Below, piece by piece: positions 1,663 through 3,515 of a stretch of DNA of 10,259 bases. Location: the NCBI GenBank assembly GCA_036337435.1, contig JAYZEG010000068.1:1-10259 (forward strand), written 5' to 3'. The notes under the pieces are model-generated. The model did no database searches. It saw nothing but the letters and a program-made list of their open reading frames with translations, and was not told the origin of the DNA. Position 1 is the stretch's first letter. Each line of letters starts with the position of its first letter. The position numbers were made by a program, and so were the translations under genes. This stretch comes from Myxococcota bacterium (GTDB taxonomy: Bacteria; Myxococcota_A; Bradymonadia; UBA7976; UBA1532).

Positions 1663-3515
1663 AGACTTTCTCCGCACGGCTCGATCAAACATTGTGCGGG
1701 CGGCAAGTTAGACTCGGGGAATGGTGGACACTCATCACCCAGTGCGAGATCCGGAGCCCATGTCCATTGGTTATACTGAATTTCCCCCATAATCGAGGAC
1801 ACACCACAGAGATTAAACGAGCGCAGGTATGTCTTTCGAATAAGGCGAACAGTCTGTCGGTAGAAGACACCAAACTTGGTTCTCGGCACCACACCGTCAT
1901 AACTCGTCAGAGTGGTACTTGTAGATGACTCAGTGAAGGTGCGCTGATAGGCTTCTGTCTCACCTTCGGTAATGGTGTTAGACCGGGATTCACTGCCCCC
2001 TAAATCAATTGTCCGTCCTTCTGATATGGTGATCACGCGTCCCTCTGAATCGGTGGTCGTCTGAGCACGATTCAGTGCATACGCCCCACCGATGCTATTG
2101 CTCCGGGCATCCGTCGTTGTGGTCCCAAAGGACCGCGTCGTATTTCGACTGGACTGTGATGAAAAGCCCCGATTGGTGCTGGATTGGCGACCTATGGACG
2201 ACGAATTACTCTGCCGGCTTCCGCTGGTCACGGTCTGATCGCTACCCACGCTGCCACCAAAATCAAATACGGACACAGAAAGCCCAGCCTCCCAGGTGTT
2301 ACTTCGTATCGAAGAGGTCTCATACACCGAGGTGTCGTTTCGGGTCGTGGTATCGCCGATGTCTAACGATGTCGTCCAGCTCTCGCCGTTGGACGAGGCC
2401 GTTTGAAGAGAATTGGCTTCACTTTGACTATAGGTCACCCCGTAGGTTTGAGTGGTACTATCCCCTTCCGTCAAAGCGACTTGCCGCGTGCGGCTTTGCG
2501 CATCAGATGTTCCGATAGACACTGAATCTCTCCAAGTGTCGCTCCGAGTCTGTCCACGGGTGGTCGTCCAGCTGCGACTGAGGGTCACGCTGGCCGAATT
2601 CTGCCGCGTCTCGCTCGACGACTCCGAATACACCACATCAGTACCGAGGGAGCCCTTAAAACAAGAGCTGACGGGTACAGGTTCTAGAAACTCGGCTTCT
2701 TCCAAACGTGGGTCAGTGAAGTGGTCTAGGGGACGATGAACCGTAAAAGGGAGAATATTTTCATAGACATTTCCTTGGGCATCCTCAGCTTCAATGCTCC
2801 AAGAGGTCGCGTAGTAAGAGTCATCCGAAGCGACGTCATTGAGCATCAAAATGTTATCCGGTGTGCCGATCGTATCCGTCTGCCCAGTGGCCGCTTGCTC
2901 GATCAGAACCAATGGTTCCCCGTTGACCTGGCCCAGGATGTAGCGGAAAAGAACTGGCTCAAACCCAACAGCTCTCACCGTCATAATATAGGCGAGACCG
3001 CCTAACCCCCTCAAGGCAGGGACACCACAATCGGCGATGACAGGCTCCCACGTCTCAATGGCCAGTGAGGGCGCTATCTCGAGACGAATATCTTTGGCAG
3101 GTCCAATGGATGACATGCCCTCAAATGGGACACTCACCACGTAGACCTGTCCTTCAAAGTATCCGGGTTCCGCTCGGTCATCCGGCACAAACGGGTGATG
3201 AAAAGGACCGATTCGGGAGAGTCGCAGAGTCGCCCCCTCATCATTTTCTTCATCATAGAGCGGCGTCACCGTGACATCCACCGGATGCCGAGTACCGCTC
3301 TCACCGACAAAAGTGCCGATGAAATTCAGCCTTGAAATCCCATCGTCGGGCGACAAAACGTCTCTGGCTTGAAAATAAAGTGTCTCACCGATGACAACGG
3401 AGTCTCGGTCGGCACTCATCACGCGGGGACCGGACAGCGTTTCTTCGATGCGGTCTGAGCCGGCACAACCAAAACAGACGCACATAAAGACCGTAATAAA
3501 AACCTGACGGGCCAC
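1659..3515 (-). CDS. Lipoprotein with Ig-like N-terminal region and a giant Ser/Thr-rich beta-hairpin; putative beta-pore-forming or tube-forming protein (618 aa)
   Basis: Same frame as the 685-aa track ORF (1659..3716). A better start is GTG at 3515, preceded by GGAGGGGAGACAA, which gives the signal peptide MARQVFITVFMCVCFGC-AGS. Next comes a beta-rich region (GPRVMSADRDSVVIGETLYF, IPT/Ig-like by inspection), then a 244-aa S/T-rich alternating segment (1899-2630), then VVPRTKFGVFYRQTVRLIR and a Cys/Pro C-terminus. The CDS is secure; the function is inferred. Confidence 0.85.
   Translation of the reverse strand: MARQVFITVFMCVCFGCAGSDRIEETLSGPRVMSADRDSVVIGETLYFQARDVLSPDDGISRLNFIGTFVGESGTRHPVDVTVTPLYDEENDEGATLRLSRIGPFHHPFVPDDRAEPGYFEGQVYVVSVPFEGMSSIGPAKDIRLEIAPSLAIETWEPVIADCGVPALRGLGGLAYIMTVRAVGFEPVLFRYILGQVNGEPLVLIEQAATGQTDTIGTPDNILMLNDVASDDSYYATSWSIEAEDAQGNVYENILPFTVHRPLDHFTDPRLEEAEFLEPVPVSSCFKGSLGTDVVYSESSSETRQNSASVTLSRSWTTTRGQTRSDTWRDSVSIGTSDAQSRTRQVALTEGDSTTQTYGVTYSQSEANSLQTASSNGESWTTSLDIGDTTTRNDTSVYETSSIRSNTWEAGLSVSVFDFGGSVGSDQTVTSGSRQSNSSSIGRQSSTNRGFSSQSSRNTTRSFGTTTTDARSNSIGGAYALNRAQTTTDSEGRVITISEGRTIDLGGSESRSNTITEGETEAYQRTFTESSTSTTLTSYDGVVPRTKFGVFYRQTVRLIRKTYLRSFNLCGVSSIMGEIQYNQWTWAPDLALGDECPPFPESNLPPAQCLIEPCGESL

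Follow-up and report, generated by a model that had tools for sequence, protein, structure and literature searches.

The window analysed here is a stretch of 10,259 nucleotides from a Myxococcota bacterium (assembly GCA_036337435.1, contig JAYZEG010000068.1, positions 1 to 10,259). It carries on its minus strand, at 1659..3515, a gene for a predicted lipoprotein of 618 amino acids, P0003. An earlier note on this DNA singled out a long segment of the protein, rich in serine and threonine, as a giant beta-hairpin and a candidate pore or tube. We find that the segment very probably folds as one antiparallel beta-hairpin, each arm being about 121 residues long. As judged from sequence comparison, P0003 is a member of an unnamed lipoprotein family known from Myxococcota-type metagenome-assembled genomes (MAGs) alone, and the family is undescribed so far.

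The gene is placed by the list of open reading frames (ORFs), by a GTG start with a ribosome-binding site and by alignment of homologues. Its stop codon lies at 1659-1661, and the ORF itself reaches 3716 (1659-3716, minus strand). The GTG at 3515 is the likeliest start, with the ribosome-binding site GGAGGGG just upstream, and full-length homologues align starting with residue 1. A longer gene model beginning at the ATG at 3716 appears less likely. Between these two starts, at 3516-3716 on the minus strand, there are 67 further open codons, an extension that is probably untranslated because it has neither a homologue counterpart nor the character of a signal peptide.

The N-terminus, MARQVFITVFMCVCFGC, reads as a short signal peptide (3465..3515, minus strand), assigned by motif and by family conservation, with a lipobox-like VCFGC in which Cys17 is the predicted lipidated residue. 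This lipobox is atypical at positions -3 and -2. The cysteine is at least 90% conserved across the family, and in short-form relatives the lipobox is canonical, L-[AS]-[GA]-C. The lipobox pattern is matched by at least 158 of 210 complete family members, a lower bound in that the pattern is too strict and several non-matching members visibly have lipoboxes. With its signal peptide, lipobox and conserved cysteine, P0003 has the sequence features that define a bacterial lipoprotein, and its lipidation is predicted.

Behind the anchor lie two beta-sandwich domains. The first, IPT/TIG-like and covering approximately residues 30-131 (3123..3428, minus strand), is supported by AlphaFold2 (AF2) strands with a predicted local distance difference test score (pLDDT) above 90, by Foldseek, and by a weak profile match over the N-terminus to the IPT/TIG protein 5e7g (E=0.015). 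The second, approximately residues 140-245 (2781..3098, minus strand), also has AF2 strands with pLDDT above 90, and its Foldseek matches are tandem immunoglobulin (Ig)-, FN3- and arrestin-like domains. Residues 250-295 (2631..2768, minus strand), delimited by AF2 strands E250-260 and E263-276 and by conserved columns, provide long strands and a conserved Cys-containing loop (consensus EPVPVSGCIPG) that leads into the hairpin. The hairpin segment itself comprises residues 296-539, or window positions 1899-2630, and is followed by DGVVPRTKFGVFYRQTVRLIR. The C-terminal module (residues 540-618; 1662..1898, minus strand) contains the conserved Pro544, a GVFYRQTxR motif, two strands of about 20 residues (E548-567 and E573-593, pLDDT 86-96) and a Cys-rich tail; R553, Q554, R557, G571 and C596 are invariant in the family. 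Long strands flank the hairpin on both sides, in a C-terminal part of the protein placed behind the two Ig-like domains.

The hairpin segment and its relatives

Retranslation of 1899-2630 on the minus strand gives 244 residues, from Y1 (codon 2630-2628) to Y244 (codon 1901-1899), and reproduces all of the counts made in the earlier note. Serine and threonine account for 99 of the 244 residues (53 S and 46 T; 40.6%), and Pro, Cys, Lys, His and Met are absent. Judged against the composition of the rest of mature P0003, the absence of Pro stands out (19.8 expected, P(0) ~1e-9), that of Lys is unremarkable (2.7 expected, P(0) = 0.064), and that of Cys, His and Met is merely marginal (P(0) 0.016-0.032). 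Aromatic residues occupy odd positions (1, 21, 33, 63, 67, 85, 103 and 113) up to F122 and even positions thereafter (124, 156, 168, 184, 228, 232 and 244). The same rule is obeyed by 23 of the 27 V/I/L residues, the exceptions being 102, 108, 199 and 241.

This parity was compared with 20,000 shuffles of the same residues, each allowed its best single flip point. In the segment 39 of 43 F/W/Y/V/I/L/M residues obey the rule, a value reached by none of the shuffles (mean 26.9, maximum 36); all 16 aromatics do so, as they did in five shuffles. One face is built from small residues, with 99 of its 121 positions (82%) being S, T, G or A. The other carries 18 of the 20 Arg, 12 of the 14 Glu, 8 of the 12 Asp and all 16 aromatics. 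The single central change of phase proposed earlier is confirmed, but the turn falls at V121/F122, in a register of i+j=243, one residue before the F122-D123 originally suggested. Parity, coevolution and the ladder of residue pairs place arm 1 at hairpin positions 1-121 (2268..2630, minus strand; bulky residues odd) and arm 2 at positions 122-244 (1899..2267, minus strand; bulky residues even).

Relatives of P0003 are numerous. A word-indexed search recovered 122, and phmmer, run exhaustively over 1.84 billion cluster representatives, recovered 308 at E <=0.001 and 98 at E <=1e-30. The named ones are all called 'hypothetical protein' and come from MAGs of Bradymonadia, Myxococcales, Myxococcota or 'Deltaproteobacteria'. 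When one genome per species was scanned, 50 loci came to light, every one in a MAG, with the lineages given as Bradymonadia, Polyangia, Nannocystaceae, Kofleriaceae, Myxococcales, 'Deltaproteobacteria' and 'proteobacterium', and one labelled Bdellovibrionales. The nearest of the 50, L001, is 61% identical.

To compare stems among these proteins we used four anchors: A, the Tyr of 'YSES'; B, W380; C, F463; and D, the Phe of 'GVFYRQT'. Over 212 sequences the A-D distance spans 59 to 423, with modes at 256 (73 sequences), 148 (30), 260 (20) and 259 (10); in the window protein it is 255. The same hairpin, as recognized from these alignments, runs from about 50 to more than 400 residues across the family, with its base register and its alternation of faces kept. 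The shortest relatives have a stem of about 50 residues, and the window hairpin is about five times longer. Members with A-D distances of 59-71 have a normal amphipathic membrane-type hairpin of 20-25 residues in the same place, for example SVNVGINIW...IGFGFNVGDSVS. At the other extreme, P0190, P0215 and P0200 have longer inserts still, with anchor distances of 310-423. On a FastTree phylogeny of the flanks (220 rows, 329 columns), stem length has changed at least 75 times when counted as exact length and at least 22 times when counted as length class.

The arms change together. AB minus CD is -4 in 82 of 82 four-anchor sequences, where AB is 82 or 84 and CD 86 or 88, so that the matched arm lengths expected of homologues under the hairpin proposal are found throughout. 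In alignment A2 gaps are frequent at two places only, positions 49-50 (67% of rows) and 192-193 (73%), which are exact cross-strand partners because 50+193=243. Insertions and deletions had also been expected to be even-numbered. The two-residue gap columns pair across the arms. In 29 comparisons of sister clades, the stems differ in length by a multiple of 4 in 14, with 7.25 expected by chance, and by an even number in 19.

Conserved parity, proposed earlier as a check on homologues, is found in the 256, 260 and 148 classes. In the 256 class (73 unique sequences), small residues make up 0.73 of even versus 0.28 of odd positions and hydrophobic residues 0.07 versus 0.34, with zero register slip from end to end. 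The alternation is the same in the 260 (n=20) and 148 (n=30) classes. These three classes show no parity flip, as is expected because their turn is one residue longer.

A further line of evidence for the fold comes from coevolution. Mutual information with average product correction (MI-APC) was calculated on alignment A2, which holds 106 long forms (effective number 84). Means along anti-diagonals peak at i+j=243 (z=5.2 among 100 anti-diagonals; z=4.9 without the gap columns; z=6.9 against a background of anti-diagonals of the same parity). Each of the 12 ten-residue bins between base and tip has a positive signal, and among the top 60 pairs 11 fall no more than 2 away from the i+j=243 line, where 1.1 would be expected. 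A second analysis, free of alignment, considered classes of equal stem length, with the register predicted as A+D-14 before the run. The predicted register was the observed peak, top-ranked, in all four classes: 244 in the 256 class (n=73; z 5.1, 191 anti-diagonals), 248 in the 260 class (n=20; z 3.5, 195 anti-diagonals), 136 in the 148 class (n=30; z 2.6, 107 anti-diagonals) and 47 in the 59 class (n=21; z 2.7, 37 anti-diagonals). For the strands of the flanks, the mutual information was too noisy for their topology to be interpreted.

The window sequence points the same way. Register 243 is the best of 34 registers by charge, with eight opposite-charge and zero like-charge pairs. On the bulky face it brings together R9-E234, R19-E224, R29-E214 and R47-E196, as well as the aromatic-aliphatic pairs V15-Y228, W33-L210 and Y63-I180; on the small face the charged residues R34-D209 and E104-R139 are direct partners. 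Such pairing of charged and hydrophobic residues in a single sequence is suggestive of register 243, and weak by itself.

Two alternatives bear directly on these data. In the first, the segment would be a disordered, possibly glycosylated linker, as its 41% Ser+Thr, a weak NCBIfam match to 'serine-rich protein' (30 bits against a cut-off of 650) and low AF2 confidence over 126 residues might suggest. A linker would not be expected to lack Pro altogether when 19.8 are expected, to keep a strict two-residue alternation in 73, 20 and 30 sequences, or to show anti-diagonal coevolution in four length classes and indels matched between two arms. Counter to it also are stem lengths that fall mainly in a few discrete classes and a hairpin in which no tandem repeat was found at the DNA level. 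We consider a linker very improbable, and the earlier note's rejection of one is upheld by the periodicity, the long-range covariation and the absence of Pro.

The second alternative is a beta-solenoid or an amyloid-like parallel stack. It would share the alternating beta-type pattern and the single face of small residues, but only an antiparallel hairpin accommodates the central parity flip together with the matched indels, and no repeat unit is found in the DNA. Under a parallel register the best MI-APC offset has a mean of 0.0205, compared with 0.051 for the anti-diagonal, and the lack of a comparable parallel offset is evidence against a solenoid. This possibility, too, is highly improbable. 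Parity, coevolution and matched indels together sustain the original proposal of one antiparallel hairpin with a small-residue face and a bulky face.

Comparison with known beta-pore-formers

Given a hairpin of this kind, P0003 may be a lipid-anchored protein similar to beta-pore-formers, with an evolutionarily tunable stem that forms a barrel. Of the readings considered this is the one we favour, and we hold it in even balance. It is encouraged by the Ser/Thr-rich alternating stem with an amphipathic tip, a feature also of aerolysin/ETX-MTX2 proteins. The tip (hairpin positions 113-134; 2229..2294, minus strand) is defined by the pair ladder and by equivalent hydrophobic tips in other length classes. 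In that ladder its outer face consists of W113, A115, L117, V119 and V121 on one arm and F122, F124, G126, V128 and V134 on the other, and its inner face of T112, E114, G116, S118 and S120 and of D123, G125, S127, G129 and D131.

Part of the hairpin is covered by the AF2 models. The model of the 438-aa short form P0256 (alignment A4) is confident, with a mean pLDDT of 90.9 and a predicted template modelling score (pTM) of 0.79; in it two beta-sandwich domains are followed by strands 271-281 and 284-297, a loop, and strands 374-393 and 399-418. Its loop is less confident (blocks of pLDDT 52-81) and contains a short helix. P0003 itself (alignment A2) has a mean pLDDT of 75.8 and a pTM of 0.77, and both of its N-terminal domains, as well as its C-terminal strands, score above 85. 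The hairpin base appears in the model as a pair of strands of 21 residues, 293-313 and 522-542, between other long strands, and two islands farther along, 351-380 (pLDDT 71-77) and 451-470 (78-81), are cross-strand partners at the coevolution register. The predictions thus support the base of the hairpin and leave the rest unmodelled as a continuous hairpin. The short helices and moderate islands in the modelled stems (351-380 and 451-470 in P0003, 340-347 in P0256) could correspond to a compact resting form that refolds into strands.

Several observations weigh against a barrel-forming relative of known pore-formers. The AF2 monomer of P0003 has no continuous hairpin, and 126 residues with pLDDT below 50, at 316-347, 387-408, 431-447 and 471-520, all lie inside it, some of them as short helices; a disordered model of the region was an outcome that the earlier note had itself counted against its proposal. 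Foldseek searches of the Protein Data Bank (PDB), which had been suggested as a further check, returned no pore-former among the matches listed for either model (about 40 of at least 500 per model). Nearly all of these are tandem Ig-like, FN3-like or arrestin-like beta-sandwiches with template modelling scores of 0.10-0.21; the queries were whole chains, so the Ig-like domains dominate the matches. Pfam and NCBIfam assign no family to P0003, 79 relatives and 8 short forms. Sequence and profile searches of the PDB with alignments A1, A3 and A4, the N-terminal region and a homologue of the neighbouring protein gave nothing below E=0.01. The presumed outer face of the stem is hydrophobic or aromatic at 43 of 123 positions, and so hydrophobic a surface, exposed over some 30 nm in water, may mean that the stem packs on something else. 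In the very long relative P0190 the tip is an acidic, Pro-rich, low-complexity insert that does not look membrane-competent. Finally, coevolution is stronger at i+j=245 than at 241, as pairing of adjacent hairpins might produce, but the difference is not significant (t=1.34).

The profile matches that do fall on the stem are all non-significant, and each is to a beta-pore-former: the natterin-like Dln1 over the tip (E=0.06-0.24), Cry51 (E=0.7-1.7), parasporin-2 (E=3.6), iota Ib (E=0.81) and CDTb (E ~4). The Ib and CDTb alignments extend over about 180 positions of the stem-forming domain (E 0.8-5.7). We treat this coincidence as a lead, which may reflect just shared composition. At E up to 1, Pfam models for Aerolysin, ETX_MTX2 and related families are absent from P0001/P0003, 80 members of alignment A1 and 8 short forms, and the PA14 and Binary_toxB domains were not found in P0003 or the 80 A1 members. 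In the ESM Atlas the long form matched its own cluster alone and the short form had no usable match; a tblastn search of a plasmid collection with the short form gave nothing relevant.

Membership in the aerolysin/ETX or protective antigen (PA) families, as first put forward, is therefore not borne out by Pfam, by any significant PDB sequence match or by the Foldseek matches listed. A looser kinship with beta-pore-formers is plausible, in light of the amphipathic hairpin of the short forms and the nature of the PDB stem matches, none of which is significant. We file the protein under neither family, because the sequence test failed and the fold comparison does not decide the matter.

In general plan the protein resembles pore-formers of both the aerolysin and the PA type. 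A stem in the aerolysin group is usually close in size to the roughly 50 residues of the shortest members of our family, compared with 244 in P0003. In the published description of aerolysin-like proteins, the N-terminal region is variable and serves binding, and the pore-forming region is made of long strands that are interrupted by one stem loop; in the aerolysin/ETX-MTX2 pore-forming region there are five long beta-strands, with the loop between strands 2 and 3 (sections of PMC5654971). Beside this five-strand plan, the AF2 models of the family show two long strands, a loop, and then two strands of about 20 residues. Shared with the group are N-terminal domains, long strands and a single inserted S/T-rich alternating stem loop with an amphipathic tip. 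Aerolysin conserves a Pro at its turn as well as Pro305, which comes after the stem (PMC5654971, section 5). Most members of our family have a Pro at the turn or tip, and the nearly invariant P544 may be compared with Pro305. The V-x-P motif that the earlier note placed after the aerolysin hairpin is not given in that section, which names Pro305. The weak stem matches to Dln1, Cry51 and parasporin-2 fall within the same group. Unlike aerolysin-like toxins, which are secreted in soluble form, P0003 is predicted to be lipid-anchored; it also differs in its two Ig-like N-terminal domains and its Cys-rich C-terminal tail, and significant sequence or profile similarity was not found.

With PA, iota Ib and CDTb the proposed structure would share one hairpin per subunit, a barrel extending far outside the membrane and a largely polar channel interior, and the family profile aligns weakly with the Ib/CDTb stem-forming domain. 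The anthrax PA stem is about 100 Å long and 14-stranded, as described in one part of PMC4516782, and the tube predicted here would be about three times longer. P0003 has no detected PA14 or Binary_toxB domain and no gene for an enzymatic partner nearby, and neither an activation site nor a phenylalanine clamp was identified in it.

In the alpha-haemolysin/leukocidin family each subunit contributes a single Gly/Ser/Thr-rich stem hairpin, and two-component versions are formed from paralogues. The single hairpin is shared with P0003, and the paralogues recall the tandem pairs found in our family; the flank architecture differs, and no search gave a sequence or fold match to this group. Tandem paralogues occur at 17 loci (L005, L006, L008, L009, L011-L020, L023, L025 and L028; for example L013:5188-7083 and 7096-8964). 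In 17 of 17 the two copies have the same stem length (256), while in the 8 pairs compared they are 47-53% identical. Equal stems in such pairs suggest a two-component assembly.

The genomic neighbourhood

Downstream of the hairpin gene, and overlapping its 3' end by about 34 bases, is the gene for P0002 (1..1692, minus strand; cut by the window edge), a Cys-rich lipoprotein with an LVAC lipobox. It has MopE-type CxxDxDC repeats and a C-terminal half without family assignment. In the Cys-rich repeat region of this gene, window positions 1001-1500 have a local GC peak (0.61) with a GC skew of -0.29. Relatives of this lipoprotein occur in 27 of 51 sources (the 50 loci plus the window). BNR/Asp-box (sortilin-like) repeat proteins are encoded near the family in 22 of the 51, beside long, 148-class and 59-class members (for example L007:1630-3546, L022:8459-10609 and L036:8389-10353). 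Of the loci, 24 extend for 2.5 kb or more on either side; 12 of these have a Cys-rich gene as immediate neighbour, 12 have a BNR gene no more than 3.5 kb away, and 19 have one or the other. At L001 the overlap between the hairpin gene and the Cys-rich gene is 4 bases, and the remaining neighbourhood is unlike that of the window. The Cys-rich neighbour may be a partner, a receptor module or an assembly factor of the hairpin protein.

Elsewhere in the window are genes for a small DJC28_CD-domain protein (3866-4267, minus strand), a SulP-family anion transporter (6954-8345, plus strand) and a 589-aa protein with a weak GmrSD_C nuclease-like match (8454-10223, minus strand). Across the 50 loci neither these genes nor three unassigned ORFs are conserved beside the family. 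In the region of the hairpin gene, a scan for promoters and terminators gave results at chance level, and Rfam and tRNA searches found none.

A proposed barrel and its meaning

If P0003 acts as a beta-pore-former, several copies of the hairpin would stand side by side in a beta-barrel. Oligomerisation is inferred from the analogy with pore-formers, from the instability expected of a lone two-stranded ribbon and from the behaviour of the tandem paralogues, and in many relatives two tandem paralogues of equal stem length may co-assemble. The bulky face would be the exterior of the tube and the S/T/G/A face its lumen, given that the bulky face includes the hydrophobic residues of the tip and that no slip interrupts the alternation. 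Such a lumen would be neutral and rich in hydroxyl groups, and the exterior would bear R/E/D salt-bridge pairs, aromatics and aliphatics. At the tip, a hydrophobic belt about 24 Å high (W113-V121 and F122-V128) could insert in a membrane.

In known beta-pore-former barrels the shear number equals the strand number, which gives an axial rise of 2.64 Å per residue. On this basis an arm of 121 residues corresponds to a barrel of 31.9 nm at a tilt of 37 degrees, or 39.9 nm without tilt, and the 30-40 nm estimated in the earlier note is reasonable. A seven-subunit barrel would have a computed C-alpha radius of 12.4 Å, and other classes in the family give computed lengths of about 8, 20 and 34 nm. 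The likeliest role of such a tube would be to reach a distant target membrane, across a thick surface layer or an envelope, and to perforate it or connect to it. A possible setting is contact-dependent antagonism or predation, perhaps with the neighbouring Cys-rich lipoprotein.

Alternatively, the hairpin could be a structural stalk or fibre without a channel, for example a narrow rod of few subunits with the small faces in its core, or a two-layer ribbon, serving at the cell surface as a rigid spacer or an adhesive spike. The face with 99 of 121 S/T/G/A residues could pack as a tight core, the aromatics and aliphatics of the presumed outer face could mediate bundling, and the strict length classes and equal-length tandem paralogues would suit a ruler or spacer; the lack of a pore-former fold among the Foldseek matches listed is in keeping with this. 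Arguing against it, both ends of the hairpin are at the base beside the lipid anchor, so the distal end is just a turn without a binding domain. Moreover, that turn is amphipathic and hydrophobic here and in most classes, and the hairpin of the shortest relatives looks like an ordinary membrane-inserting one. A stalk is unlikely in our view.

It is also conceivable that the barrel belongs to the producer's own envelope, anchored in one membrane and spanning the periplasm with its tip in the other, for export or uptake rather than attack. P0003 is a predicted lipoprotein, the estimated 32 nm is on the order of the periplasm plus a membrane, and the conserved neighbours are other lipoproteins and BNR-repeat proteins and not toxin-immunity pairs. 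Counter to this, the shortest relatives, at about 8 nm, would be too short for a periplasm although they share flanks and neighbours, and at least 75 changes of stem length on the 220-sequence tree fit poorly with the fixed size of a cell's own envelope. Genes for secretion systems or transporters are not conserved nearby. We regard such a conduit as decidedly unlikely.

The barrel reading can be extended to the idea that these proteins are length-tunable trans-envelope tubes (about 8, 20 and 32-34 nm) of predatory or antagonistic Myxococcota, with the hydrophobic tip driven through the surface layers, or even the entire envelope, of a neighbouring cell. The tube would be a Ser/Thr-lined surface barrel, in many lineages a hetero-oligomer of two paralogues, and would serve as a conduit for killing or for extracting the contents of prey, its stem length set by the prey envelope. 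This more specific proposal is itself unlikely as things stand, and the contact-dependent needle spanning a Gram-negative envelope that the earlier note suggested is likewise speculative. For the window protein the link with predation is context rather than evidence. Bradymonabacteria are described as predators (in part of PMC7460792), and passages of a 2025 review of contact-dependent predation describe them as possibly epibiotic predators (PMC12428579); the word 'pore' is absent from the available text of that review. A literature search found nothing in print on the hairpin lipoprotein family, and no paper joining Bradymonadales with pore-forming or aerolysin with Myxococcota.

Even if the protein is not a pore, a conserved two-stranded element with 121 residues per arm is structurally unusual. 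It also shows cleanly how an extreme structure to which AlphaFold2 gives low confidence can be established from coevolution together with matched indels. Should the hairpins form a barrel, its stem would be by far the longest beta-barrel stem described, about three times the roughly 100 Å given for PA in part of PMC4516782. It would also be the first example of a stem whose length visibly evolves as a quantised trait, the arms always staying matched, and family members with tubes of 8, 20 and 32 nm would make a natural series in which to study how beta-pore-formers reach distant membranes. The scaffold would be of interest for nanopore and nanotube engineering. The feeding mechanism of epibiotic-type predation is described as unknown (within PMC11055950). 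If the trans-envelope reading is true, these tubes would provide a physical feeding or injection channel for that mode of predation. A barrel-forming family would also supply a candidate for the conduit, so far missing, of contact-dependent predation in Myxococcota.

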